From contig CBDESU010000002.1 of NCBI GenBank assembly GCA_965242695.1, forward strand, positions 1,536,001 through 1,600,000: 64,000 bases of DNA, read 5' to 3'. This document shows, piece after piece, positions 27,462 through 42,068 of the stretch; position 1 is the first letter of the stretch, and each line of letters opens with the position of its first letter. Made by a program: the position numbers and the translations under genes. The notes below the pieces were generated by a model. It was not told where the DNA came from and did not search any database. It worked only from the letters and a program-made list of their open reading frames with translations. Origin of the DNA: Cenarchaeum sp. GTDB taxonomy: Archaea > Thermoproteota > Nitrososphaeria > Nitrososphaerales > Nitrosopumilaceae.

Positions 27462-28454
27462 TCAGCGCTCGATCTGCGGCATGTCCAGCCCGTTGTCGAT
27501 GCTACACTCTGGCTCGTCCCAGTCCAGCATGCTTTCGGCCGGTATCGCGCCGAGCGGGTCGTACGCGTCGAACTTTGCAGTGCTTTGAAGGGCCGATACC
27601 ATGACGACGCCGCCCGCGCCGCCCCCGGCCCCCGCCGCGTGCGAATAGTCTACCGTCGTCCCGCTGCCGCCGAGCGCGCCGCGCATGAGGCGCGAGACCG
27701 TGTCGATCACGCCCACGGGAACCTCGTCCCCGCCGAACACGTGCAGGACAGAGCTGGACACGTCCCCGGGCCCAGCCCCTGCGTACAGCATGCTCAGCGA
27801 CCGCCTTGCCGACTCTTCCAGCGCATCTGCCTGGCCGCCAGCGGTCACCATGCAGACGCCGCCGGGCGGCGGCGCGGCGCCTCGCAGCGAGGCGGCCACG
27901 CACACGATGGCGGGGTTCGTAATCCTGCGCGTTCCGGCGGGGCTGAGCGACGGGTTTGACGAGAGGACTGCGTCGTTGTCGACGACTACGGTGCAGGCGC
28001 AGTCGGCCCTGAGCCTCCTGAGGGCCGTGCCGGACGCAAAGATGCGGTCCGACTCGAACCCGAACGGCATGATGGCGATCGAGAACGCCTTGATGCCGGC
28101 CCTGCGGCACATGCGCGAGACGACCGGCGCGATGGCGGCCCCGCTCCTGCCGGCCAGGCTGCCGAGTATGACGGCCGAGCCGCACCCGCGCAGGGCGTCC
28201 TCCAGCCGTGCCGACACGCCGGATGCCGTGGTGCAGCCCCTTATCATGGCCGACGACGGGTTGACCACCCCGCCGGTCGGCACCAGAATGTTGATGCCGG
28301 CCGCGCGCCCGGCGCCTCCTGCCTCCGCCAGGTCTGCCGGATCGTTGCTGATTCTAACGTAGTCGCACCCGATGGCGGCCGCAACCTGCGGGGCCAGGCG
28401 CGATCCCGCGCCTCCGGCGCCGACCACAAGGACGGGGCCTGCAAGCTCTGCCAT
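27462..28454 (-). CDS. ftsZ: Divergent thaumarchaeal FtsZ/tubulin-like protein
   Basis: VVGAGGAG, LAGRSGAAIAP in place of GGGTGTG, IMPFGFE, VVDND, C-terminal LDWDEPECSID. Confidence 0.82.
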   Translation of the reverse strand: MAELAGPVLVVGAGGAGSRLAPQVAAAIGCDYVRISNDPADLAEAGGAGRAAGINILVPTGGVVNPSSAMIRGCTTASGVSARLEDALRGCGSAVILGSLAGRSGAAIAPVVSRMCRRAGIKAFSIAIMPFGFESDRIFASGTALRRLRADCACTVVVDNDAVLSSNPSLSPAGTRRITNPAIVCVAASLRGAAPPPGGVCMVTAGGQADALEESARRSLSMLYAGAGPGDVSSSVLHVFGGDEVPVGVIDTVSRLMRGALGGSGTTVDYSHAAGAGGGAGGVVMVSALQSTAKFDAYDPLGAIPAESMLDWDEPECSIDNGLDMPQIER

Positions 28455-28984
28455 CGGCGGCCCTGTCCGGGCTCTCGTAAAATATCTTTGGGCCAAAAAG
28501 GTTCGATCGGGCGATCAAAAAGATCTAGCTTGGCGGGGCGCCGGGGGCCCCGTCAGGGGGCCGATCGCCGGCCGCCGGCCGCCCGATTGGGCGCCGGCTG
28601 GGGGGGGGGGGTGGGGGCAGAGGGGCGGGCCTCCGGCCGCGCCGCCTTGGCATCGGGATGCGCCGGCCGCGCCGCCGGGCGGACGTCCTCCTGCCATGTC
28701 CTGCATGACCCCGCTCCGCATTGGGATCTCCAGTGCGCCGCCATTCCCATGTGTCTCTCCCCCTGCGATCGCCTCTTCGGCCTCGCTCCAGCCCCCGCAT
28801 GCGATCGCCTCTTTTCGCGCCCGCGCGCCGGCCTCCTGCGATCGCGCGTCTTCGCCCCCGGGACTGCCGTCAGGGCTCGGCCGTCCGCGGGCGGGCAGCG
28901 CACGCGGCGCGCCCCGCTGCACTGCGGCGAAGACTGGCTGCCCGCGCGGCGGGCCCCCGGCCCCCCTGCGCGCGCGCCGGCCGC

Positions 28985-30262
28985 TCAGCACAGCTCGCCG
29001 GACAGCCCGTGGTCCGTATGTCCGGTCACCCTGGCCAGCACCGTCTGCCCAGGCTCGGCGCCCGTTCCGGCGCCAAAGTGCACCGGCCTGTACCTGTCGT
29101 CCCTGCCCTTGAGCCCCCCGTCCCCCGTCCGCTCGACGAGCAGCACCTCGCACTGCGAGCCGACAAGCCCCGCGTTGGCCTCCCTCGATATCGAGGCTGC
29201 CAGCTCGGACGCGGCCCTGCTCCTGCCCCGCACCGTATCGGCGTCGACCTGCTCCATGCCGGCCGCCTCGGTGCCCGGCCTTGCGCTGTACCTTGACACG
29301 TTGACGATCTCGGGCCTCGTGTCCCTGAGCAGATCCATCGTCGCCCCAAAGTCCTCGTCGGTCTCGCCGGGAAACCCGACTATGACGTCGGTCGCAACGG
29401 TGAACCTCCCGAACCGCCCCCTGAGGGCGGCGCATGCGCCGGCGAACGTGCCGGCCGTGTGGGCCCTCTTCATTGCGGCCAGCACGGCCCCGCTGCCGCT
29501 CTGCACGGGCAGGTGGGCGAACTTGTACACCTTTTCCGAGGCGTACGCATCGAGCAGGCCGCCGCGCATGCGCGGCATGTACATCGGGTTCATCATGCCG
29601 ACGCGCACCCTGAACCGGCCGGGCACGGCGGCCACGGCCACGACTAGCTCGGGCAGGTCGGCCCCGATGTCGAGCCCGTAGCACCCGTTGTCGGTCGACG
29701 TCAGCCACACCTCGCGGCAGCCGTCCTCTACGTCCTCCCTGACCTGCCTTACGATGTCGCCTATGCGGTGGCTCCTCAGCCCGCCCTTTGCGAGCTTTGT
29801 CTGGCAGAACGAGCACTCGCTCATGCAGCCGGCGGCGATCTCGACTATCGCGACGACGGGGTTGAGCCGGACGCGCGGCAGCGCCGCCCTAGGCCCGTCC
29901 GTGTCGCCGAGCGCGACGAGCCTCCCGCCGGACAGGGCCGCGTCGACGGCCTCGGCGGCCCTCTCTATCGTGCGCGGCCCGATGATGCCGGCGCGCGGCC
30001 CGGCAAACCTCTCTACGGTGCGCATCTCGGCCTTTGGGAGGCACCCGGCGACGACGAGCGGCTTTGACGACAGGCTCTTCATGCGGTGAACCATGCGGCT
30101 CGCGGTCGCATCCTTTACCGAGCACGTCACGATGACGCCGGCGTCGGCCTCGTCGTGCGACGCCGCTAGCGTGTGGCCTCCGGCCTCTATGATCCCCGAT
30201 ATGGCCTCCGAGTCGGCCTGGCTGGCCGAGCAGCCGTACGCCTCGACCCACACGCGCGCCAT
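28985..30262 (-). CDS. tRNA t6A37 methylthiotransferase (MiaB-like radical SAM, archaeal e-MtaB type)
   Basis: YGCSASQADSE, TCSVK, GCMSECSFC (CxxxCxxC), HLPVQSGS, DVIVGFPGET, C-terminal TRAM domain. Confidence 0.92.
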   Translation of the reverse strand: MARVWVEAYGCSASQADSEAISGIIEAGGHTLAASHDEADAGVIVTCSVKDATASRMVHRMKSLSSKPLVVAGCLPKAEMRTVERFAGPRAGIIGPRTIERAAEAVDAALSGGRLVALGDTDGPRAALPRVRLNPVVAIVEIAAGCMSECSFCQTKLAKGGLRSHRIGDIVRQVREDVEDGCREVWLTSTDNGCYGLDIGADLPELVVAVAAVPGRFRVRVGMMNPMYMPRMRGGLLDAYASEKVYKFAHLPVQSGSGAVLAAMKRAHTAGTFAGACAALRGRFGRFTVATDVIVGFPGETDEDFGATMDLLRDTRPEIVNVSRYSARPGTEAAGMEQVDADTVRGRSRAASELAASISREANAGLVGSQCEVLLVERTGDGGLKGRDDRYRPVHFGAGTGAEPGQTVLARVTGHTDHGLSGELC

Positions 30263-30269
30263 GCGCAGC

Positions 30270-31673
30270 TCACCGGCGAAGGAGGGCGGCCGCCTCGGAC
30301 GCCGAGACGAGGCCCCTGGATACGGCAAGGTCGGCCGCCGGCGTGCCCGTCGAGAGCGACTCCTTGAACAGGGCCGCGGCCGCCTCGTACCCGATGCGCG
30401 GGGCGAGCAGCGTGACCATCACGGGGCTGTTCCGCGCCCTCTTGGCGAGCGCATCCCTGTCGGACTCTAGCCCGTCGACGAGATTTGATGCGAATATGGG
30501 CACAAAGCTCGACAGCATGTCCGTCGAGTCGAGGACCGCCCTGAGCATGCCCGGCAGCATCACGTTGAGCTCGAACTGGCCGGCCTGGGCTGCCATCGCG
30601 ACGGCCGCGTCGTTGCCTGCGACGGCAAAGCAGACCATGTTCATGCACTCGGCAAGCGACGGGTTGACCTTGCCGGGCATTATCGACGAGCCGGCGTGGA
30701 CCGCCGGCACCCTGACCTCGGCGAGGCCTGCGACCGGCCCCGAGGCCATCAGGCGCAGGTCGTTTGCAAGCTTTGCAATCTCGCCGGCCATGCCGCGGAG
30801 GGCCGCCGAGACGGACGCGACGGCCAGGCGGCTCTGCAGGGCGTGCTGCATGTCGGGCTCGGGCCTGAGCGGGAGGCCCGACGCCCTTGCCAGCTCCGCC
30901 ACGGCGGCCCTGCGGTAGCCCCTCGGCGCGTTGGCGCCGGTCCCGACCGCCGTCCCGCCGAGGGCCACGGCCCGAAGCGCCTTGGCCGCGGCCTGTACCT
31001 GCGCATGCGCCCTAGATATCGCGGTAGCGCATGCGCCGAGCTCGCCGCCGAGCGTGACCGGCAGGGCGTCCATCAAATGCGTGCGGCCGATCTTCGAGTG
31101 CCGCGAGAACTCGGCGGCCTTTTTGCGCAGCGATGCGACGAGGTCCCCGGCCGCCCCGTCCACGCCCCGCATGGCCAAGAGTATCGACACGTGCATTGCG
31201 GTCGGGTACGTGTCGTTGCTAGACTGCGACATGTTGACGTGGTCGTTGGGGTGCAGGTGCGAGTAGTCGCCCCTCTTGCGGCCCATCCTCTCGAGGGCCG
31301 CGTTGGCGACTACCTCGTTGGCGTTCATGTTGAACGCCGTGCCGGCCCCAGAGTTGATCATGTCGACGGCAAACTGCTCGCGAAGCTTGCCGGCGAGTAT
31401 GTCGTCGCACGCGTACACGATGGACCTGCCGCGCTTGGCGTCGATGGCGCCGACCTTCATGTTGGCGATGGCCGCCGAGCGCTTTATCATGACGAACGCG
31501 TCGACGAGCAGCGGGTGGGCGGGGCGGCCCGTGACGCGGTACTGCTCGAGCGCCCTTGCCGTGAACGGGCCGTAGTAGGCCGACGCCGGCACCCTAACCC
31601 TGCCGAGCGAGTCCTCGTCCGTCCTGTACGCCGCGCCCGGCGCCGCCTTCTTCCGGCTCCTGCTAGCCGCCAT
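30270..31673 (-). CDS. Class II fumarate hydratase / aspartate ammonia-lyase
   Basis: SGAGTAFNMNANE, HPNDHVNMSQSSND, KIGRTHLMDA, GSSIMPGKVNP. Confidence 0.93.
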   Translation of the reverse strand: MAASRSRKKAAPGAAYRTDEDSLGRVRVPASAYYGPFTARALEQYRVTGRPAHPLLVDAFVMIKRSAAIANMKVGAIDAKRGRSIVYACDDILAGKLREQFAVDMINSGAGTAFNMNANEVVANAALERMGRKRGDYSHLHPNDHVNMSQSSNDTYPTAMHVSILLAMRGVDGAAGDLVASLRKKAAEFSRHSKIGRTHLMDALPVTLGGELGACATAISRAHAQVQAAAKALRAVALGGTAVGTGANAPRGYRRAAVAELARASGLPLRPEPDMQHALQSRLAVASVSAALRGMAGEIAKLANDLRLMASGPVAGLAEVRVPAVHAGSSIMPGKVNPSLAECMNMVCFAVAGNDAAVAMAAQAGQFELNVMLPGMLRAVLDSTDMLSSFVPIFASNLVDGLESDRDALAKRARNSPVMVTLLAPRIGYEAAAALFKESLSTGTPAADLAVSRGLVSASEAAALLRR

Positions 31674-31888
31674 GCGCCGCCCGCGGCCCGTGCGCGGCTT
31701 ATCACTCTTTGTCCGCGGGATCGGCCGTGCCGGCCCCTAGACGGGGCGGACTGGCGGCGGGCGGGCGCGGGGAACAGGGGCGGCGCGGGGCGCATCCGGG
31801 CGGCGGCGCCCCTCGGCCGCGGCGCCGCCGCGGAATGGCGGGCAATTACATGCAAGCCTTATATTCTGTTTTTTAAGCGCCCGCCCCA

Positions 31889-33289
31889 ATGCATAAACAG
31901 ACGCACTTGATCCTCACGATCGCCGCAGTGGCGGTCATGGGGGCAACGCTACTTGGAAGCACCTTCACGCAGGCGCCCGCGGCGGATTCGTCGTCGGGGG
32001 TGACGAAGCAGAGCACCGACCTCCTAGAGAAGATACACGACATGGGCGGCCTGCAACTGGTCATGCCCAAGGCGTTCGCCGAGACCGACTGCGACATGCT
32101 GGAGGCCACCGGGCGCAACGTCGTCGAGTTCAGCCTCACGGGAGAGAGCATCGAGATGCCCATCATGGGCGGCAAGACGTACTATGCCATGTCCTTCGGC
32201 CAGCAGATTCCGGGCCCGACGCTCAGGGTGACCCAGGGCGACGTGGTCAAGATGTCGCTTACCATACCCGAGGACGAGGCCACGGCGCACGGCAACGACA
32301 TGCACGCCTCGCAGATGTCGTCTGCCAACTTTGACGCAGTGTATCCTGGCGAGACCGACACGTACTGCTTTATCGCAGAGTCTGCCGGCCTCTTCAAGTA
32401 CCACTGCTCGGGCGTCGACCTGGTCGGAATGGACCAGCACGTCCTGTCCGGCATGCACGGCATCGCCATCGTAGACCCGGCCAACGGCTACAAGACGCTC
32501 CCCGTCGAGAAGACGAGCGGCAGCGGCGTAGTCGACCGCCAGTACTACTCGCCCGACGCGCTAGAGTTCGTACTCCAGTACTCGCAGCTCTACCTCACGG
32601 ACGAGGGATACTACGACGGGGCGGCGATGATCCACCACGAGCAGGACCAGAGCACCGTCAACGGGCAGGCGTTCAGCTACGTGCCCAACGGCGTCCACAA
32701 CCTGCTCGTAGCCGGCGACATGGACACGAACATCTTCGTGGCGCAGCCGTGGAACGGGCTCGACCTAGAGCAGTTCCAGTCGCAGCTCCTCTACGTGGAG
32801 ACGGGCCAGCACGTCCGCCTGTTCATCGCGAACCAGGCAAACGAGCCGGTCTTCTTCCACATCGTAGGAGAGATACTCGACAGGGTTGTCCAGGGCAACA
32901 GGGTCCAGTCGGCAGCCACGGAGACGTGGATGCTCGGCGGCTCGCAGAACATGATCGTAGACGTCGTGTTCGACGAGCCCGGCACGTACGCGGCCGTCAA
33001 CCACGACTATGCGGCGCTGTACACCGGCGCGGTGACGGTCTTCGTGGCCGGCGATCCGTTCGGCCTCAACGAGAGGCTGATCGACGCCGAGGTCATCGCG
33101 GATGCAGTCCCGTCGTACGCGTACGTTCTCGGCAACCCGAGCGATGCGGTGCCCCCGATGGGCGCCAACAGCATCGCGCACCCCGCCGTCAACGTGCACG
33201 GAATGTACACCGACGACGTGGTCGAGCAGAAGATAGCCGAAGGCGCGATCCCGCTCTGGGAAGTAGTACCGACGCTGCCGCCGATCTAG
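31889..33289 (+). CDS. nirK: Copper-containing nitrite reductase (thaumarchaeal NirK)
   Basis: Signal peptide; HGNDMHAS, YHCSG...DQHVLSGM (Cu ligands), FFHIVGE, VNHDY; N-terminal GGLQLVMPKAFAETDC typical of AOA NirK. Confidence 0.93.
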   Translation: MHKQTHLILTIAAVAVMGATLLGSTFTQAPAADSSSGVTKQSTDLLEKIHDMGGLQLVMPKAFAETDCDMLEATGRNVVEFSLTGESIEMPIMGGKTYYAMSFGQQIPGPTLRVTQGDVVKMSLTIPEDEATAHGNDMHASQMSSANFDAVYPGETDTYCFIAESAGLFKYHCSGVDLVGMDQHVLSGMHGIAIVDPANGYKTLPVEKTSGSGVVDRQYYSPDALEFVLQYSQLYLTDEGYYDGAAMIHHEQDQSTVNGQAFSYVPNGVHNLLVAGDMDTNIFVAQPWNGLDLEQFQSQLLYVETGQHVRLFIANQANEPVFFHIVGEILDRVVQGNRVQSAATETWMLGGSQNMIVDVVFDEPGTYAAVNHDYAALYTGAVTVFVAGDPFGLNERLIDAEVIADAVPSYAYVLGNPSDAVPPMGANSIAHPAVNVHGMYTDDVVEQKIAEGAIPLWEVVPTLPPI

Positions 33290-33298
33290 ACGAACGCT

Positions 33299-33314
33299 GT
33301 TTTTTCCTTTTTTC
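33299..33314 (+). terminator. Oligo-T archaeal terminator after nirK
   Basis: TTTTTTCCTTTTTTC about 10 nt after the nirK stop. Confidence 0.6.
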
Positions 33315-33349
33315 TACAAAATATATGGAGCCTGCGCGCCGCGCCGCCC

Positions 33350-34321
33350 GTGGACGCCGCCGAACCGCCGCCAGCCGCCGCAGAGCAGGGCGCGAAGGGC
33401 AGGGAGGCGCTCGTGTGCGACGAGGTCGACGCGTCGCTCGCGCGCATACTAGAGTCCAACGGCATGGCGGTCGCGTACGAGCCGTCGATCACGGCCGGGC
33501 GCCTGCTAGAGGTCGCCGGCAGGTTCGATGCGATCGTGGTGCGCAGCCGGACAAAGGTGACGGCCGACGTGGTCTCGCGCGCCGAGCGGTGCAGGGTGAT
33601 CGCGCGCGTCGGAGTCGGACTAGACAACATCGACGTCGGCGCGGCCGAGGCGCGCGGCATCAGGGTCGTCAACGCGGCAGAGGCGGCCACGACGGCCGTC
33701 GCCGAGCTCGTCCTTGCCCTCATGCTGTCGATGGCCAGGCAGGTGCCGCGCGCCGACGCCGGCATGCGCGGCGGGGAATGGCTAAAGTCCGCGATACGGG
33801 GAACCGAGCTGCGCGGCAAGTACCTCGGGATAGTGGGGCTGGGCAACATCGGAAGGCGCCTCGGCCGCCTGGCGCGGGCCCTGAACATGAACATTATAGG
33901 CCACGACGTGGTCCCGATCGACGCCGAGTTTGCAAGGGACGTCGGGCTGATGAAGGCCGACCTCGACACGCTGCTGCGCAGCTCGGACTATGTGTCGCTG
34001 CACGTGCCGCTGCTCGACTCTACGCGGCACATGATCGGCGCCGAAAAGCTGGCCCTCATGAAGCCGACGGCGAGGCTCATCAACACGTCGCGCGGCGGCA
34101 TAGTCGACGAGGACGCCCTGTACGATGCGCTCGAGTCGGGCCGGCTCGCCGGCGCGGCCCTAGACGTGTTCGAGTCCGAGCCGGCCGCCGGCCACCGCCT
34201 CTCGAGGCTCGACAGTACCGTCCTCACGCCGCACGTCGGCGCGATGACGGCCGAGGCGCAGGCGCTCGCGGCCAACGTGGCGGCCGAAAAGATCATCCAG
34301 GTGCTGCGCGGCGTCATCTAG
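33350..34321 (+). CDS. serA: D-3-phosphoglycerate dehydrogenase / D-2-hydroxyacid dehydrogenase
   Basis: RVGVGLDNID, GIVGLGNIG, LHVPL, INTSRG, ALDVF, TPHVGA. Confidence 0.85.
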   Translation: MDAAEPPPAAAEQGAKGREALVCDEVDASLARILESNGMAVAYEPSITAGRLLEVAGRFDAIVVRSRTKVTADVVSRAERCRVIARVGVGLDNIDVGAAEARGIRVVNAAEAATTAVAELVLALMLSMARQVPRADAGMRGGEWLKSAIRGTELRGKYLGIVGLGNIGRRLGRLARALNMNIIGHDVVPIDAEFARDVGLMKADLDTLLRSSDYVSLHVPLLDSTRHMIGAEKLALMKPTARLINTSRGGIVDEDALYDALESGRLAGAALDVFESEPAAGHRLSRLDSTVLTPHVGAMTAEAQALAANVAAEKIIQVLRGVI

Positions 34322-34919
34322 GCGGGGCGGGGCCGCCGCCTGCCCTTCCGCCTCCACTCCTACCAGCGCATCCGATGCCGCGCCGGCAGGCGGCCGACCG
34401 CGGGCCGCGCAGGGCGGAACCCGGGGCGCCCCATGCCGCGCCCGCGATCTCAGGCGTTCCGGCGCCGCGGACACGGCATCGCCGCACCGCATGCCGCGCC
34501 GGCGCGCCATTGCTCCGGTCTTCCTGCGGCCGCGAGAGGGCGCCGGCTGCAAGGGTGCAGCTCCAGCAGGGCCTCTGTGCGGTCGCGCCCTCCTGCGGCT
34601 GCGAGAGGGCGCCGGCTGCAGGGGCACTGGCGGCATGCGGCGCGATCGTCCCTCTTCTGGCGGCGCTATGGATGGGGGCCGCCTATGGGAGTGTATGGGG
34701 GATGGCGGGGACGTGGCCCTGCGCCTGTGGGATGATCCGCCCCCCCCCCCAATCACTATTCTTTTATAGGTGGCATTGGGGCGGCGGGCGGGCAACAATG
34801 GCGCAAAGCACATTCCCTGCATGCGGCACGGGCCGGCCGCGTAGGAACTCCCGCGCGGCAGAGCTGGGGGGGGGGGCGGCACGAAGCGCCGACCCCGCAG
34901 CGGCCGGCGTCCTGTCGCC

Positions 34920-37900
34920 GTGCCAGTCCTTGCCTTGGTAGCGGCCGCGCTTGCCCTGGCCGCAACCGTAGGCGCGCCGCCCGCGGCTCATGCCCATACC
35001 ACTGCTGCCACGGGCGAGGTGACCGCGTGTAGCGAGACCACTGGAACTTCAACCATCTCGTCGATCGACTTCACCTCGGACGACGGTACGTACGGGATCG
35101 GCGACACCATAGGCATTAGAGTCACAACGACTGAAAATACCGCCGGCGATGACAGCCATAAACATGTAATGGGGCACACCCTCGTCAAGCTCGAGACGGG
35201 AAATACGGATCGGTTTGCCGAATACAGCAGGCATACGGGAGGTACTAGCAACATAATCGACTACACGTACACCGTGCAGGCAGGCGACGTGTCCAGCGAC
35301 CTCGACTACCACTCGAGGACGGCGCTGTTCTGGACGATCCGTCATGGTGGACTTGACTGGCAGCCTACAGACGTTCACGACACGATATTCAACTGCCAGC
35401 TGCCAGCGACCGGAGGAGCCGGCTCGCTGGCCCATGGGAATGCCATCGTAGTCGACGGGATCGCGCCAGAGGCGCAGAGCGTCACCTCTTCCACGGCCGA
35501 CGGCACGTACGGCAAGGGGGAAACGATCACGGTGCAGGTGTCGTTCAACGATGCCGTCACCGTCGACACCACGGGCGGCACGCCGACCATACAGTTAGAG
35601 ACGGGAGCGACCGACAGGAACGCGACGTACAACGCGGCGGCGAGCACCACCACCGTGCTGGCGTTTTTGTACACGGTGCAGCCTGGCGATACCGCGTCCG
35701 ACCTAGACTACAAGAACACCCTGGCCCTGTCCACCAACGGCGGAACCATACAGGACGCGGCCGGTAACAACGCCACCCTGACGCTGAAAGAGCCGGGAAT
35801 ATCCGGCTCACTCGGCCACTCAAAGGCCATCATTATCGACACCCCTCCAGCCGTCTCGTCTGTAACGTCCCAGACGGCCAACGGATCGTACAAGGCCCAA
35901 TCGACGATCGTCGTGCAGGTGGAGTTTGACGAGCCCGTCACCGTCGACACCGCGGGCGGCACGCCGACCATACAGCTCGAGACGGGTGCGACCGACCGAG
36001 ACGTGGCGTACGACGCGTCCGCCAGCACCTCGACCGTGCTGGCGTTTTCGTACACGGTGCAGCAGGGCGATGCCGCGTCCGACCTGGACTACACGGGCAC
36101 GACGGCCCTGTCCCTCAACGGCGGGACGATCCAGAACGCGCAGGGCGACGACGCCGACCTGGCACTGAAAGAGCCGGGAGATCCTGGCTCGCTCGGCGCC
36201 TCGAAGGACATCATTATCGACACCGCCGACCCGACCGTCTCGTCGGTCACGTCCTCGTCGGCCGACGACTCGTACAAGGCCCAATCGACGATCGTCGTGC
36301 AGGTGGAGTTTGACGAGCCCGTCACCGTCGACACCGCGGGCGGCACGCCGACCATACAGCTCGAGACGGGTGCGACCGACCGAGACGTGGCGTACGACGC
36401 GTCCGCCAGCACCTCGACCGTGCTGGCGTTTTCGTACACGGTGCAGCAGGGCGATGCCGCGTCCGACCTAGACTACACGGGCACGACGGCCCTGTCCCTC
36501 AACGGCGGGACCATACGGGACGCGGCCGGCAACGATGCCGACTTGGAGCTGGAGGACCCCGGAACGTCTGGCTCGCTCGGCCACTCAAAGGCCATCGTAG
36601 TCGACACCGCCGCCCCGACGGTCTCGTCTGTCACATCCTCGTCGGCCGACGACTCGTACAAGGCCCAATCGACGATCGTCGTGCAGGTGGAGTTTGACGA
36701 GGCCGTCACCGTCGTCACCACGGGCGGCACGCCGACCATACAGCTCGAGACGGGCGCGACCGACCGAGATGTGGCGTACGACGCGTCCGCCAGCACCTCC
36801 ACCGTACTGGCGTTTTCGTACACGGTGCAGCCTGGCGATGCCGCGTCCGACCTGGACTACACGGGCACGACGGCCCTGTCCCTCAACGGCGGGACGATAC
36901 GGGACGCGGCCGGCAACGATGCCGACTTGGAGCTGGAGGACCCCGGAACGTCTGGCTCGCTCGGCCACTCAAAGGCCATCGTAGTCGACACCGCCGACCC
37001 GACCGTCTCGTCGGTCACGTCCTCGTCGGCCGCTGCTTCATACCTGGAAGGATCAACGATCGTCGTGCAGGTGGAGTTTGACGAGGCCGTCACCGTCGTC
37101 ACCACGGGCGGCACGCCGACCATACAGCTCGAGACGGGCGCGACCGACCGGAACGCGACGTACAGCGCCGCGGACAGCACCTCGACCGTACTGGCGTTTT
37201 CGTACACGGTGCAGCCTGGCGATGCCGCGTCCGACCTGGACTACACGGGCACGACGGCCCTGTCCCTCAACGGCGGGACGATACGGGACGCGGCCGGCAA
37301 CGATGCCGACCTAGAGTTGGATCCGCCGGGCACGGACGGCCTGCTCGACTCGGGGACGATCCTCGTCGATGCAGTGCAGCCGACCGTCGACTCTGCCTCG
37401 TCGACGACCCAGCCCGGCACGTACCCCATCGGCTCGTCCATAGTCGTCACGGTCACGTTCAGCGAGGATGTGGCCGTCGTCACCGCGGGCGGCACGCCGT
37501 CGATCGCGCTGAACACGGGCGCGGCCGGACGGTATGCGGTGTACGACGCGGGGGCCAGCACTGCCAGGACGCTGGCGTTTGCGTACACGGTGACCGAGGG
37601 CGACGACACGGCAGACCTAGACTACAACAGCACGGCCGCTATTCTGCGCAACGGCGGGACCATACGGGACGCGGCCGGCAACGACGCCGACCTAGAGTTG
37701 GATCCGCCGGGCACGGACGGCCTGCTCGACTCTGGGACGATCCGCCTAGAGGCGGTCCGCCCTGCGGTCGACTCTGCCTCGTCGACGACCGAGCCGGGCA
37801 CGTACCCCATCGGCTCGCCCATAGTCGTCACGGTCACCTTCAGCGAGGATGTAACCGTCGTCACCGCGGGCGGCACGCCGTCGATCGCGCTGAACACGGG

Positions 37901-40900
37901 CGCGGCCGGACGGTATGCGGTGTACGACGCGGGGGCCAGCACTGCCAGGACGCTGGCGTTTGCGTACACGGTGACCGAGGGCGACGACACGGCAGACCTG
38001 GACTACAGCGCGGCGGCCGTCATTGTGCGCAACGGCGGGACCATCCGGGACGCGGCCGGCAACGATGCCGACCTAGAGTTGGATCCGCCGGGCACGGACG
38101 GCCTGCTCGACTCTGGGACGATCCACCTAGAGGCGGTCCGCCCGGCAGTAGAGTACGTCTACTCGGAAAAGGACAACGATCTGTACCCCGTCGACACCGT
38201 GATCGACGTGCGGGTAAAGCTTGGCGAGGAAGTCATCGTCGACAACTCTAGCGGCACGCCATCCATACGGCTAGAGACGGGCACGACCGACCGGAACGCT
38301 ACATTTGCCGGAGGCAACAACTCGGACACGCTGGTGTTTACGTACACGGTGCGGCAGGGCGACGAGACGGACGACCTGAACTATACGGGCACGACGGCCC
38401 TGTCCACCAACGGCGGGACCATACGGGACGCGGCCGGCAACGACGCCGACCTAGAACTACCCGAATGGGGCGCCGGGGACACGCTCGGAGAGCGCAAGGA
38501 CATCGCAATCGACACCGCGGCGCCCGTGGTACTATCCGCCGAGGCAGAGTTTTTGGACCGCATACGCGTCACCTTTGACGATTCCGTGGCGTCCGGCTCA
38601 CTGAACGCCTCGGCCGGCTGGTCCATATCGGGGCCCAGCGTGGCCAACCTTTCAATAGCAGCCCTTGAGCCCGTCCCTGCGTCGGCGCCGCGGGACAATA
38701 TCGTCTTTATGCTCAACGACACCCTGCCCAACACGGCCCCCGATCTCGAGCTGTCCTACGACGCCGGCGCCGGCGGCATCCGGGACGAGGCCGGCAACCT
38801 CCTGCAGGACACGACGGGCATAGTCGTGGCCGACCGCATACGGCCGAACATTCTCGAGCCACTGATCACGGGGAATCGCGAGATTACGATCGACTATACA
38901 GAGCCGGTCGCCGCATCGCCGGGAGCCTACTCGGGGCTCGAGATCGGAGGGGATGCCCGCCAGCTGGACCCCCACGACACGGCCCCCCTTAGCCGGCACG
39001 TGATCACCTTTGACGGCGAGCCGGCCCCCGTCCCGGAGCCGCCGAGCAGCATGACCGTGAACGGCACGGCGGTAGTCGACGGGGCTGACCCGCCAAACCC
39101 ACTCGGCGACGATATCTTGACCGTGGACATACTGGACGGGAGGGTCTTGGACGTATTCTCGTCTAGGATCACGGGGCCCGACACGGCCGTCATTGCGTAC
39201 ACTAGGAGCGCAGAGGCCCCGCTCGAGGCGTACTCTTCGCTCGTGGTCGGCGGGCAGAACAGGACGATAACGGGGCTGGACGGGGGAGACGCCGGCGCCG
39301 GCAGCCACTTCCACACGCTCACGTTCTTGCCGGGCGGCGCGCCGCCGAACGCGACCGGCAGCGTGGCGATCGACGGCACGGCCGTCGTCTCGCCGGGACT
39401 GGACATGCGGCTCGGCAACGGCACGGTCCAGCACACGCTTGCCGACGGCCAGTCGCCGTCGGTGCTCGGCGCCACGGCCGTATCGCTCGACACGATACGG
39501 GTCTTGTTCAGCGAGCCCGTACTGGCACCGGGCGCGGGAGCCGGAGGATGGTCGGTGTCGGGCCGCGATGCCGAGGGACTTGCCGTCGCCTCGAGCCAGG
39601 ATGCCGCAGAGCCGGCGGACTCGCTCGACCTCACGCTGGGAGGCGATCTGCCCGACACGGCGCCCGACGCGATAACCCTCTCGTACCGCCCGGCCGACGG
39701 CGGCAGCGTCGAGGATGCGGCCGGAAACGACCTTGTCGCCTCGTCGACGAGCGTTGCGGACGGGATCGTTCCAGAGGTTCGATCTGCCGCCGTTTCGGGG
39801 CCCAACGAGGCCGAGGTTCGGTACACGGAACCCGTATGGGCCGCGCCCGGAGCGTACGCGTCCGTGACGCTGTCATCGGGCGACGAGCCGCGCGCGGTCG
39901 TCTGGGAAGGAAACGGGACGGGCACCCACACGGTCTCGTTCGGCGGCAATCCTGCGGGGCCGGACGCGACCGGCTCGCTGGGAGTGGATGCGGCGGCGGT
40001 GCGCGATGCGGCGGGGCACGCGCTCGCAGCGGGAGGCGCGATCGCGCTTGCCGACGGCCAGTCGCCGTCGGTGCTAGGGGCCACGGCCGTGTCGCTCGAC
40101 ACGATACGGGTCTTGTTCAGCGAGCCCGTGGCGGCCCCAGGCACGGGAGCAGGAGGATGGTCGGTGTCGGGCCGCGACGCGGCCGGCCTTGCCGTCGCCT
40201 CGAGCCAGGACGCCGCAGAGCCGGCGGACTCGCTCGACCTCACACTGGGAGGCGATCTGCCCGATGCGGCGCCCGACGGGGTGGTGATCTCGTACGATCC
40301 GGCAGACGGCAACGTCGCCGATCCAGCCGGCAACGAGCCTGCCGCCTCGTCGGCGGACGTTGCCGACGGGATTGCCCCAGAGGTGCGGTCCGCATTTGTC
40401 GCGGGGCCGAACGCGGCCGAGGTCAGGTACACGGAGCCCGTGTGGGCCGCGCCCGGCGCGTACGCGTCCGTCACGCTGTCTTCGGGAGGCGGCCTGCGTG
40501 TGGTCTCTAGCCTGGCGGGCAACGGGACCGCCGTGCATACGGTGGCATTCGGCGGCGAGCCGGCGGGGCCGGGGGAGACGGGCGTGCTCGAGATGGATGC
40601 GACGGCGGTACGCGATGCGGCCCGGCTTCCGCTTGGGACGGACGCCGCGCTCCAACTCGATCTGGCCGGCGCGGCGCCGCAGCCGGGCAACGCCACGGCC
40701 AGGGCCGTGTTTACCGCTAGCAACGTCGCGACCATAACGTACTCGGCGGCGCTCGGGCCGCCGGCGGGGCACGACGGCCCAGTGTACACCGCGGTGGCGA
40801 TCAACGGGGAGGGCGCCGCCTCCGCCGCCAGCACGCGCCCCGTGTCGGGCGTGGAGGGGCTGGGCACGGCGGTCCACGCCGTCGCGTTCGGCGGGGACGG

Positions 40901-42068
40901 CGTGGGCCGCAACCAGACGGGGACGATCACGCTTGCGGTCGACCTGGTGGGGGCGAGCGGCGCCGCCGGCATCGACCCGCCGCGGTTTGCGGCAGACGAG
41001 ATACCCGTCGCATCCGGCCTGACCGTGCAGACCGTCCTGGTCGCGCAGACGCGGCCGCCGCCGGTCAGCATCGAGCCGGACGGCTTTACCCGGGCAATCG
41101 ACGGCACCGCGGCCGGCGCGGCGGCGCGCTTGGCGATTAACGTGACGGCGCTGGCCGGCACATCCGGCGCGCCGGGCACGGCCACGTTCCCCGAAGAGGC
41201 CGTCACGCTGACGGCCTCGTTCGGCGCGGTGACGTTCCCGCCGGGCGCCACGGCAATGTCCGTCCCCGCCGCTGGCGCGCTCTACCTGTACGTGGACGAC
41301 GGCGGGACTTCCGACGAGGCTGCCACCGCCGCCCTGGCACATCCAAACTCTGGCGGAATGGTGCTGCGAACGATCGTCGAGGCCGGCGGCAACGGCGACG
41401 GCCGCATCACATTCGACATGCCCGTCCGCATATCCCTTGACGGCCAGGCCGGCGGCCGCGCGTTCTACATTGAGGGCGGGGCGGACGGCGCGATTGTGCC
41501 GATCGACCTGGCATGCGCAGCAGACGACACGGAGAGGGTTCACCGGCAGCTCGGCGGCTCGGGCGAGTGCCGGATCGAGTCGGGAGGCGACATGGTCATA
41601 CACACGTACCACCTGACGCGGTTCGGCACCGCCGCATCCGAACGCGGCACGCCGCCGCCAGTCGACCATACGTGCTCGATGCGCCTCGGCTCGGAGCGCC
41701 TGGATGCGCAGGCCCGCCCCGGCGACTATTCCAATGCGGCCGAGCAGGCCGTGACAAATTCGGGATCACTGTCGTTCTCAAGCGTCGAGCTCGGGGCGAC
41801 ACCGTGGTCCGTCACTCCACTCCCAGGCGCACCCGTCCAGAACGCCACGTCGTCGCTGCCAGCCAACAGCACCTTGATGAGCGCGGTCGGATCGGATGCG
41901 GGATTCGCCCCGCTGCCGGCAGGCGGCGCTTCCGTGGCGCACGGACTTGGCGGCGGCCTAGAAGTACCGCTGTGGTTCATGCTCAACCTGACGGGGCACG
42001 CCCAAGTGGAGGGCGCCGAGCTCGCGCAGCGCGTCGAGTACACGGCCGAGTGCGCCGGCGCCGGGTAG
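34920..42068 (+). CDS. Giant secreted Ig-like repeat surface protein (adhesin-like); true start probably ATG 34798 across a G11 frameshift
   Basis: h-region and AHA cleavage site; about nine ~127-aa repeats (LETGATDR.A.Y...F.YTV..GD...DLDY....L..NGGTIRDAAGNDADL.L); further repeats ending ...D.AGN; Cys-containing C-terminal domain. Confidence 0.88.
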   Translation: MPVLALVAAALALAATVGAPPAAHAHTTAATGEVTACSETTGTSTISSIDFTSDDGTYGIGDTIGIRVTTTENTAGDDSHKHVMGHTLVKLETGNTDRFAEYSRHTGGTSNIIDYTYTVQAGDVSSDLDYHSRTALFWTIRHGGLDWQPTDVHDTIFNCQLPATGGAGSLAHGNAIVVDGIAPEAQSVTSSTADGTYGKGETITVQVSFNDAVTVDTTGGTPTIQLETGATDRNATYNAAASTTTVLAFLYTVQPGDTASDLDYKNTLALSTNGGTIQDAAGNNATLTLKEPGISGSLGHSKAIIIDTPPAVSSVTSQTANGSYKAQSTIVVQVEFDEPVTVDTAGGTPTIQLETGATDRDVAYDASASTSTVLAFSYTVQQGDAASDLDYTGTTALSLNGGTIQNAQGDDADLALKEPGDPGSLGASKDIIIDTADPTVSSVTSSSADDSYKAQSTIVVQVEFDEPVTVDTAGGTPTIQLETGATDRDVAYDASASTSTVLAFSYTVQQGDAASDLDYTGTTALSLNGGTIRDAAGNDADLELEDPGTSGSLGHSKAIVVDTAAPTVSSVTSSSADDSYKAQSTIVVQVEFDEAVTVVTTGGTPTIQLETGATDRDVAYDASASTSTVLAFSYTVQPGDAASDLDYTGTTALSLNGGTIRDAAGNDADLELEDPGTSGSLGHSKAIVVDTADPTVSSVTSSSAAASYLEGSTIVVQVEFDEAVTVVTTGGTPTIQLETGATDRNATYSAADSTSTVLAFSYTVQPGDAASDLDYTGTTALSLNGGTIRDAAGNDADLELDPPGTDGLLDSGTILVDAVQPTVDSASSTTQPGTYPIGSSIVVTVTFSEDVAVVTAGGTPSIALNTGAAGRYAVYDAGASTARTLAFAYTVTEGDDTADLDYNSTAAILRNGGTIRDAAGNDADLELDPPGTDGLLDSGTIRLEAVRPAVDSASSTTEPGTYPIGSPIVVTVTFSEDVTVVTAGGTPSIALNTGAAGRYAVYDAGASTARTLAFAYTVTEGDDTADLDYSAAAVIVRNGGTIRDAAGNDADLELDPPGTDGLLDSGTIHLEAVRPAVEYVYSEKDNDLYPVDTVIDVRVKLGEEVIVDNSSGTPSIRLETGTTDRNATFAGGNNSDTLVFTYTVRQGDETDDLNYTGTTALSTNGGTIRDAAGNDADLELPEWGAGDTLGERKDIAIDTAAPVVLSAEAEFLDRIRVTFDDSVASGSLNASAGWSISGPSVANLSIAALEPVPASAPRDNIVFMLNDTLPNTAPDLELSYDAGAGGIRDEAGNLLQDTTGIVVADRIRPNILEPLITGNREITIDYTEPVAASPGAYSGLEIGGDARQLDPHDTAPLSRHVITFDGEPAPVPEPPSSMTVNGTAVVDGADPPNPLGDDILTVDILDGRVLDVFSSRITGPDTAVIAYTRSAEAPLEAYSSLVVGGQNRTITGLDGGDAGAGSHFHTLTFLPGGAPPNATGSVAIDGTAVVSPGLDMRLGNGTVQHTLADGQSPSVLGATAVSLDTIRVLFSEPVLAPGAGAGGWSVSGRDAEGLAVASSQDAAEPADSLDLTLGGDLPDTAPDAITLSYRPADGGSVEDAAGNDLVASSTSVADGIVPEVRSAAVSGPNEAEVRYTEPVWAAPGAYASVTLSSGDEPRAVVWEGNGTGTHTVSFGGNPAGPDATGSLGVDAAAVRDAAGHALAAGGAIALADGQSPSVLGATAVSLDTIRVLFSEPVAAPGTGAGGWSVSGRDAAGLAVASSQDAAEPADSLDLTLGGDLPDAAPDGVVISYDPADGNVADPAGNEPAASSADVADGIAPEVRSAFVAGPNAAEVRYTEPVWAAPGAYASVTLSSGGGLRVVSSLAGNGTAVHTVAFGGEPAGPGETGVLEMDATAVRDAARLPLGTDAALQLDLAGAAPQPGNATARAVFTASNVATITYSAALGPPAGHDGPVYTAVAINGEGAASAASTRPVSGVEGLGTAVHAVAFGGDGVGRNQTGTITLAVDLVGASGAAGIDPPRFAADEIPVASGLTVQTVLVAQTRPPPVSIEPDGFTRAIDGTAAGAAARLAINVTALAGTSGAPGTATFPEEAVTLTASFGAVTFPPGATAMSVPAAGALYLYVDDGGTSDEAATAALAHPNSGGMVLRTIVEAGGNGDGRITFDMPVRISLDGQAGGRAFYIEGGADGAIVPIDLACAADDTERVHRQLGGSGECRIESGGDMVIHTYHLTRFGTAASERGTPPPVDHTCSMRLGSERLDAQARPGDYSNAAEQAVTNSGSLSFSSVELGATPWSVTPLPGAPVQNATSSLPANSTLMSAVGSDAGFAPLPAGGASVAHGLGGGLEVPLWFMLNLTGHAQVEGAELAQRVEYTAECAGAG
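35460..38515 (+). repeat. Intragenic tandem repeats of about 380 bp, several near-identical at DNA level
   Basis: The block GGCGGCACGCCGACCATACAGCTCGAGACGGG recurs at 384-bp intervals (about 35955, 36340, 36725, 37110); a second repeat subtype spans about 37380-38130. Confidence 0.92.

Follow-up and report, generated by a model that had tools for sequence, protein, structure and literature searches.

Can the length of a single run of G switch a giant surface-protein gene of an archaeal symbiont on and off? In bacteria that live with a host, phase variation by slippage is a textbook strategy. The question is raised by a locus in the genome of a sponge-associated archaeon, Cenarchaeum sp., of which we analysed a stretch of 64,000 nt (the window). 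The window equals C2:1536001–1600000, C1 and C2 being the two contigs of the genome; coordinates given without a contig are those of the window and were read directly from the sequence. It holds a giant open reading frame (ORF) that begins with what looks like a signal peptide, and a run of eleven G (G11) separates this signal peptide from the ATG nearest the promoter. An initial annotation had proposed that the run keeps the gene off. We consider it probable that the G11 run is a slippage-operated frame switch, that is, a phase-variation device, of a giant surface-protein gene. The leader is built from the following elements:

34740–34750, + strand: C11 tract, ending 12 nt before the TATA box (sequence).
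34762–34768, + strand: TATA box TTTTATA, within the motif ATTCTTTTATAGG (sequence and paralogue comparison).
34798–34800, + strand: ATG1, the start codon nearest the promoter; its frame ends at TAG 34939–34941 with G11 and at 42068 with G9, G12 or G15.
34821–34844, + strand: ATG2 and, as the 8th codon of its frame, TAG 34842–34844 (sequence).
34845–42068, + strand: open frame of the giant protein, predicted to be secreted (ORF reading; Pfam on pieces).
34866–34876, + strand: G11 homopolymer, the candidate slippage switch; G12 in sequencing run X4.
34878–34913, + strand: basic n-region GTKRRPRSGRRP in the frame of the ORF (sequence and paralogues).
34914–34994, + strand: hydrophobic core VAVPVLALVAAALALAA and c-region TVGAPPAAHA, with AHA at −3 to −1 (read by eye).

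Direct reading placed the C11 tract, the TATA box, ATG 34798, its 47-residue stop frame and the G11 run exactly where the initial annotation had put them. The long ORF is closed upstream by TAG 34842–34844, ends at 42068 and counts 2382 amino acids from GTG 34920. When a script altered tract length alone, translation from ATG1 yielded 2422 amino acids with G9, 2423 with G12 and 2424 with G15, and stopped after 47 with G11, 77 with G10 and 78 with G13. This agrees with the earlier claim that G12 or G9 would join the ATG to the long ORF (2423 amino acids with G12). Translation in the ORF frame also bore out that a basic n-region precedes the hydrophobic region and the AHA site, and that a start at GTG 34920 lacks this n-region. 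At G11 the ORF has its first canonical start in GTG 34920, and no ATG, GTG or TTG occurs in the ORF frame in the sequence read between TAG 34842 and this codon. It sits within the hydrophobic core, and initiation there loses every basic residue. The earlier account of the start codons stood for ATG1 but had overlooked a second ATG at 34821. Through G11 this ATG2 shares the frame of the long ORF, but TAG 34842 closes it after 7 codons. With ATG1 off and ATG2 closed, G11 therefore leaves no precursor that carries the n-region. The tract has the length at which G/C runs become hypermutable (about 8 or more) and, if ATG1 is indeed the start codon, lies where a change in length would switch expression.

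The length of the tract differs between natural samples. Six studies contribute 14 runs that contain the stretch 28000–35100, in all cases as contigs; these runs are sponge metagenomes or coded organisms. Four of them, X1, X4, X5 and X6, were aligned to 28000–35300 as Logan contigs, which drop minority variants. X4 carries G12 with C9 at a depth of 452.7 and 0 substitutions across 34645–35300. X1 carries G11 with C9 and 0 substitutions across 34645–35098, at a depth of 4.39, which is below 5 and at error-warning level. X5 carries G11 with C11 at a depth of 9.59, has 0 substitutions and 0 gaps across 34315–35044, and is identical to the assembly. Among the indels listed, those of X1, X4 and X5 fall only at the C and G tracts, so that between samples the tract is polymorphic in length on an otherwise identical background. 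Variable tract length, which the initial annotation had named as the mark of a contingency locus, was thus found (G12 in X4; G11 in X1, X5 and the assembly), and the opposite case that it had raised, a fixed G12 misread in the assembly, does not apply: G11 and G12 both occur on identical flanks. The C11 run that it had noticed upstream varies as well, being C9 in X1 and X4, C11 in X5 and shorter by six bases in X6. This last run represents a diverged strain, with 66 substitutions and 21 gap letters over 34552–35219 and three single-base gaps just 3′ of the G run.

Another run in the window, G12 at 28600, is unchanged in X1 and X4 relative to the assembly. Around it, at 28488–28731, the summed contig depth rises about ten-fold or more in X4 (2612.8) and X5 (809.8); because of this jump and of several contig breaks at the same place, the segment is probably a repeated element. 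A further comparison came from two assembled haplotypes that are 99.8% identical over 22.6 kb, with 46 substitutions and 9 gaps between them. They differ in the length of 3 of 4 homopolymers of at least 9, versus 8 of 294 runs of 4–6.

We compared the present locus (A) with the paralogues B (C1:442.9k), C (C1:1287k), D (C1:331k) and E (C1:1365k). The leader design recurs: ATTCTTTTATA, an ATG 35–44 nt on, a run of G11–13 about 60 nt past the ATG, then the n-region, the core and an AxA-like site. The motif ATTCTTTTATAGG is common to A, B, C and E, and D has ATTCTTTTATAC instead. ATG1 is conserved in B and C, and the Arg-rich n-region is kept in the ORF frame, with an invariant RR, in all five copies. 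From the first ATG, a shift of +1 is needed in A, B, C and E and of −1 in D. A, B and C all have ATG2, 23 nt past ATG1. In B (G13) and C (G11) it is in phase with the ORF and its frame stays open; at the position of TAG 34842, the 8th codon of this frame, B has TGG and C CGG. A sister species (G004) carries tandem homologues, L019, L021 and L023, each with TTTTAATAGG, an ATG about 31 nt on, G12–13 and a signal peptide. In L021 (G13) the ATG is in frame with the signal peptide, and L019 and L023 need −1. Three further homologues have G18, G10 and G11 at the equivalent place. As the required shifts run in mixed directions among the paralogues and the G004 loci, a uniform miscall is argued against. 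Two scans of metagenome contigs did not contain the conserved leader pattern, and its sole match in genome contigs was a chance one in a Myxococcota metagenome-assembled genome (L028).

The gene is accessory. It is missing from the syntenic site in all 4 of the 4 same-genus genomes. Orthologues of the dehydrogenase encoded upstream of it occur in 4/4 of these genomes, and the giant gene lies next to none of them, so that orthologous tracts cannot be compared. In G004 (C2:1487669–1489169, L029) the spacer after the orthologous 2-hydroxyacid dehydrogenase gene carries a G10, though a different gene follows.

We then asked how the tract relates to the rest of the genome, which comprises 3.89 Mb at 67% G+C and an archaeal 16S rRNA. 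G/C homopolymers of 6, 7 and 8 number 1914, 265 and 46, and those of 9–13 number 29, 53, 54, 47 and 30, with a tail to 34. The runs of at least 9 total 252 and form a second length mode at 10–13, whereas A/T runs decay steadily (37, 13 and 5 at lengths 8–10). At a decay of about 6-fold per added base, arithmetic predicts fewer than one G/C run of 11; 54 were observed. A G11 pattern, counted on both strands with overlaps, has 554 matches here and 464 and 552 in the other two large genomes of the genus; it is rare in two small ones (33 and 12).

These runs are not scattered evenly over the genome. For all counts, genes were modelled by a crude codon-usage ORF picker (2173 ORFs, 76.5% of the genome) whose start placement is unreliable, and expected values for run positions were taken from 20,000 random placements. 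Of the 252 runs, 23 lie within genes versus about 146 expected, 33 lie in an open frame ahead of its first start codon, which is the layout of the present locus (6.9 expected), and 49 lie at most 150 nt upstream of a start (10 expected). A coding-strand G run within 250 nt of the open-frame start is found in 22 of the 39 genes of at least 2000 amino acids; 14 of the 102 genes of 1000–2000 amino acids and 47 of the 2032 smaller genes have such a run at the 5′ end. Taking all genes of at least 1000 amino acids together, 36/141 have the 5′ G run, versus the 47/2032 among smaller genes, an enrichment of the kind expected of a surface-gene repertoire; a C run at the 5′ end occurs in 1 of these 141. 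In nearly all tract-bearing giant genes the run lies directly 5′ of an Arg-rich segment and an Ala/Leu-rich core, that is, a signal-peptide-like N-terminus. A need to encode poly-Gly was ruled out as the source of the runs: GGC makes up 62% of Gly codons, and pure GGG was found in 38 of 2281 runs of at least 3 Gly. Internal tracts were of little use as a control for assembly error: only 10 have at least 100 coding-like codons on both sides, 5 in frame and 5 out, a small sample confounded by adjacent genes. The MutS domain (MutS_V) had 0 matches in the genome, which is 96% complete, and a weak NucS-like match was found (NucS_C, C2:763219–763437, 23.3 bits). If indel repair is lacking, homopolymer instability would be favoured.

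Is ATG1 a plausible start codon? Among 1487 genes, TATA-like hexamers start 28–31 nt before the first in-frame ATG (43, 56, 38 and 21 matches; background 0–5), and this spacing is the signature of leaderless transcripts. ATG2 lies 58 nt from TTTATA. The 5′ untranslated region (5′UTR) of ATG1 is predicted from the sequence to be about 4–6 nt.

The protein itself is laid out as an N-terminal tip domain that belongs to no Pfam family, repeats of about 128 residues, Ig-like Big_5 domains and a DUF7453-like C-terminal part. Pfam had no match on the undivided protein; searched piecewise, it gave only Big_5 and a weak DUF7453. Big_5 scored 27.2 bits (cut-off 23.6) on the residues coded by 38400–39899 and 17.4 bits on the next piece. 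Adhesin, the label used in the initial annotation, is a putative function. The 2382-codon ORF is unbroken and strongly coding (score 597.7 in a crude codon-usage model). Read by eye, the n-region, the core and TVGAPPAAHA resemble a secretory signal peptide. The RR is invariant in 5/5 paralogues and TatC is encoded in the genome, so that Sec and Tat export cannot be distinguished for this signal peptide.

From these data we propose how the switch may work. The G11 run would be a hypermutable homopolymer within the first 30 codons of a giant secreted-protein gene of a sponge-associated archaeon. Transcription would most likely start a few bases 5′ of ATG 34798, about 29 nt past the TATA box, as in the leaderless genes of this genome, and translation from this ATG would pass through the G run. 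With 12 (or 9, or 15) G it would continue into the Arg-rich n-region, the core and the AHA site and yield, at G12, a precursor of 2423 amino acids, which would be exported. With 11 G it would stop after 47 amino acids, and no remaining start codon would cover the n-region. We infer the cause, reversibility and rate of the length changes: slipped-strand mispairing in replication would alter the run by single G, so that symbiont lineages would flip the gene on and off. Dozens of other giant surface-protein genes may be switched likewise. What was observed, and carries the proposal, is the anatomy of the locus, the frame arithmetic, the different lengths that samples show on identical flanks and the pattern across the genome and between species; switching may also benefit the symbiont. 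Paralogues and species in mixed states, shifts required in both directions, lengths that vary between samples on identical flanks and a focus on giant secreted proteins all fit a contingency repertoire.

Several observations weigh against a frame switch worked from ATG1. ATG1 is 35 nt from TTTATA, off the modal 28–31. The promoter-proximal ATG is in frame in 1 of the 11 giant genes with a TATA box and an open upstream ATG, where arithmetic predicts about 3.7 at random; either most of these genes are off, or the promoter-proximal ATG is not always the start. About 14 of the 36 giant genes have an in-frame ATG or GTG within −1 to +14 nt after the tract, and in those genes the tract may act in the 5′UTR and not via the frame. 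In B and C the in-frame start is ATG2, not ATG1. Substitutions leave the frame undecided: two changes between A and B/C are silent only in the ATG2 frame, and three changes between B and C are silent only in the ATG1 frame. The gene calls of relatives that are 86% and 65% identical (P0009 and P0014) also start inside the hydrophobic core, and an annotated “on” form is absent from the assemblies examined. The alleles were compared between contigs only, where a length mixture within a population, the hallmark of phase variation, is not visible; X1 has a depth below 5, and X1–X5 may include the source sample of the assembly. Among the 18 runs considered, no RNA run contains the stretch 28000–35100.

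Four other explanations were weighed. We hold it unlikely that the tract is a cis-regulatory leader element, with the protein made in any frame and tract length tuning its level. The run would then be a Shine-Dalgarno-like or small-RNA-target G repeat, or a promoter spacer, and initiation would fall on GTG 34920 or on some non-canonical codon past the tract. The starts at −1 to +14 nt past the tract in about 14/36 giant genes suit this explanation, for instance in E (GTG at +1), at C1:92280 (ATG at +7) and at C1:1586187 (ATG at +14). The 16S rRNA 3′ end is ...GGATCACCTCCT, whose CCUCC could pair with GGGGG via one G-U pair. There are 22 same-strand tract pairs within 300 nt, some of them directly past a TATA box, and gene callers place the starts of P0004, P0009 and P0014 inside the hydrophobic core. 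A precedent is RepG of H. pylori, whose target in an mRNA leader is a G repeat of variable length according to the accessible text of PMC8295292. At the present locus, however, no canonical start lies between the tract and GTG 34920, and a start at this GTG would drop the RR-bearing Arg-rich n-region that is kept in 5/5 paralogues. B and D likewise lack a post-tract start. The fold of the leader RNA is ordinary and not significant (z −0.86). Searches for known RNA families gave three matches, all far under their gathering scores.

It is also doubtful that the present copy is decaying or silenced. Here the start of the family would be ATG2, lost by a TGG to TAG change at 34842; the tract would drift neutrally, and G12 would not be a functional “on” state. 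In B and C an open frame leads from ATG2 into the ORF; in A this frame is likewise in phase through G11 yet meets a stop at codon 8, which is TGG in B and CGG in C. The accessory nature of the gene, missing from the syntenic site in 4/4 same-genus genomes, points the same way. Set against this, the 2382-codon ORF is intact and strongly coding by the crude model (597.7), A, B and C all keep ATG1 and, as far as the tract, its open frame of 23 codons, and the sole length change observed in nature is one that restores ATG1. TAG 34842 is unchanged in X1, X4 and X5 (0 substitutions), which is counted against decay as well.

More improbable still is recoding, by which slippage of RNA polymerase or ribosomal frameshifting would yield an in-frame product from any DNA length, the out-of-frame form being the normal, expressed one. 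RNA polymerases are known to slip on long homopolymers, and the promoter-proximal ATG is out of frame in 10 of the 11 giant genes and in 2 of the 3 G004 loci. But the shifts required over the giant genes are balanced (5 need +1/−2 and 5 need −1/+2), and because they go both ways one fixed recoding event cannot serve all copies; moreover, the length of the DNA tract itself differs between samples. Finally, we hold it very improbable that all samples have G12 and that the G11 readings are homopolymer errors of sequencing or assembly. In favour of this, the deepest data (X4, depth 453) read G12, the G11 readings stem from the assembly and from contigs of low depth (4.4 and 9.6), and 4 of 5 paralogues need +1. 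Against it, three two-tract combinations (C11/G11, C9/G11 and C9/G12) occur on identical flanks with the C tract differing by 2 and not 1, the G12 at 28600 is identical in X1, X4 and the assembly, the required shifts balance over all giant genes, and giant ORFs run without a break for up to 8081 codons.

Some further features of the leader are described here in their own right. The C11 tract with its flanks (34737–34751) and the G11 run with its flanks (34865–34879) form a perfect 15-nt inverted repeat, 100% complementary, whose arms are 113 nt apart and enclose the TATA box and both ATGs. An invertible promoter as a general mechanism was considered and dropped: no strand-changing joint was seen in the contigs, and pairs of opposite-type tracts are rare, with 4 versus 22 same-type pairs within 300 nt genome-wide. 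Three 25-nt direct repeats spaced 58 nt apart (34363–34503) and two 34-nt repeats spaced 69 nt apart (34522–34624) lie in the 480-nt spacer 5′ of the promoter. The X6 strain has 105 nt of it (34446–34552) swapped for 48 different letters.

Elsewhere in the genome, same-strand double tracts recur about 90–100 nt apart (C1:135658/135762, 150343/150446, 266171/266272 and 828696/828806, and E at C1:1365k). One tract of each lies directly after a TATA-like AT-rich box and the other before the signal peptide. Post-tract starts are found at C1:92349, C1:1026212, C1:1586019/1590239, C2:1097565, C1:1365k and others; in those genes the spacing from run to start resembles that of a Shine-Dalgarno sequence, or the last G of the run is also the first of a GTG start. 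The longest run of the genome is a C34 at the 5′ end of a 519-residue ORF (C1:1176667–1176721), 11 nt on from a G10.

The long runs are also polarised along the chromosome. Their strand switches at two points of the circular genome, about 1.0 Mb on C1 and about 0.45–0.5 Mb on C2. On the + strand, G prevails along the arc that runs from C2 0.5 Mb through the end of C2 to C1 1.0 Mb (for example, 20 G versus 2 C in C1 0–200 kb), and C along the other arc. The bias in gene orientation, taken over the same bins, is weaker than this polarity, which thus looks replichore-linked and is a hint of some dedicated means by which the tracts are made or kept. The end of C1 equals the start of C2 (C2:1–12526) exactly over 12.5 kb, and the start of C1 (C1:1–28700) matches the end of C2 as a second haplotype, at 99.8% over 22.6 kb followed by a diverged repeat region. 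Because both contig ends overlap, one of them as a second haplotype, the genome is circular and was assembled from a mixed population.

How does the proposed switch compare with known systems? Neisseria pilC has a poly-G run in its signal-peptide coding region that turns a surface protein on and off by frame. The position of the run inside the signal-peptide coding region is shared; pilC differs in being a single bacterial gene pair, as opposed to at least 36 giant genes with a run here. Haemophilus influenzae lic1 has several ATGs in different frames upstream of its repeat. Likewise, two start codons in two frames (ATG1 and ATG2) lie 5′ of the slippery run in A, B and C, so that two of the three phases could give a product; unlike in lic1, the second frame is closed at the present locus by TAG 34842, and the use of either ATG is a prediction. 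In Neisseria opa, according to the accessible text of PMC3960869, CTCTT repeats lie in the coding region of the leader peptide. In both systems a simple repeat follows the start codon and precedes the body of the signal peptide, the genes form a family of surface adhesins (here putative) with many paralogues, changes in repeat length, by slipped strands in opa and as proposed here, shift the frame, and copies are found in different states. In opa, however, the repeat is a pentamer, the organism a bacterium, translation Shine-Dalgarno-led and the switching rate measured, at about 1e-3 per cell per generation in the available part of the same source (PMC3960869); the present locus has a homopolymer and belongs to an archaeon with near-leaderless promoters and proteins of 1000–8000 amino acids. 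The same accessible text (PMC3960869) describes a promoter poly-C tract in Neisseria opc. As a variable poly-C run beside the promoter of a surface protein, it is a possible model for the C11 at 34740–34750; the opc run lies within a bacterial promoter, whereas C11 lies upstream of an archaeal TATA box and would leave the TATA-to-start spacing unaffected.

At the scale of the genome, the closest likeness is to an AT-rich host-associated microbe with a genome-wide set of G/C homopolymers that has a separate length mode and is focused on surface-structure genes. That AT-rich genome has about two dozen tracts, against 252 of at least 9 at 67% G+C here, where most tracts lie at 5′ ends or between genes and the G is nearly always on the coding strand of the giant genes. 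The accessible part of a 2025 review counts 23 phase-variable genes in C. jejuni NCTC11168 and presents archaea as future ground for phase variation (PMC11868660). In the literature we found no description of homopolymer phase variation in Thaumarchaeota, sponge archaea or archaea generally. In a survey of 18 archaeal genomes, short poly(A)/(T) tracts were located near 5′ ends and poly(C)/(G) tracts were not nearer 5′ ends, as far as the available text goes (PMC2831843). A preprint states that contingency loci have been described in archaea, citing a 1987 paper titled on simple repetitive sequences, which in the accessible text is the sole archaeal reference behind the statement (bioRxiv 10.1101/2025.10.21.683753).

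Taken together, these results make the locus a real and well-supported candidate for archaeal phase variation, with a known mechanism in a new domain and at an unusual scale. A practical warning follows for annotation, in that gene callers truncate giant proteins inside the signal peptide. We regard as evenly poised the wider proposal that the clade of large-genome, sponge-symbiotic Thaumarchaeota has an archaeal “phasome” that far exceeds any described bacterial one in size: some 250 G/C homopolymers, of which at least 36 lie at the starts of giant surface-protein genes, would be switched by slippage without MutS, each cell showing a different subset of proteins toward host or phage. If the frame switch is true, an animal-associated archaeal symbiont varies its surface by a trick of bacterial type, slippage switching works on near-leaderless archaeal genes, and the switching spans dozens of giant proteins. 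Tract lengths per host individual would then be a countable marker of the population structure of the symbiont and of selection by host or phage.

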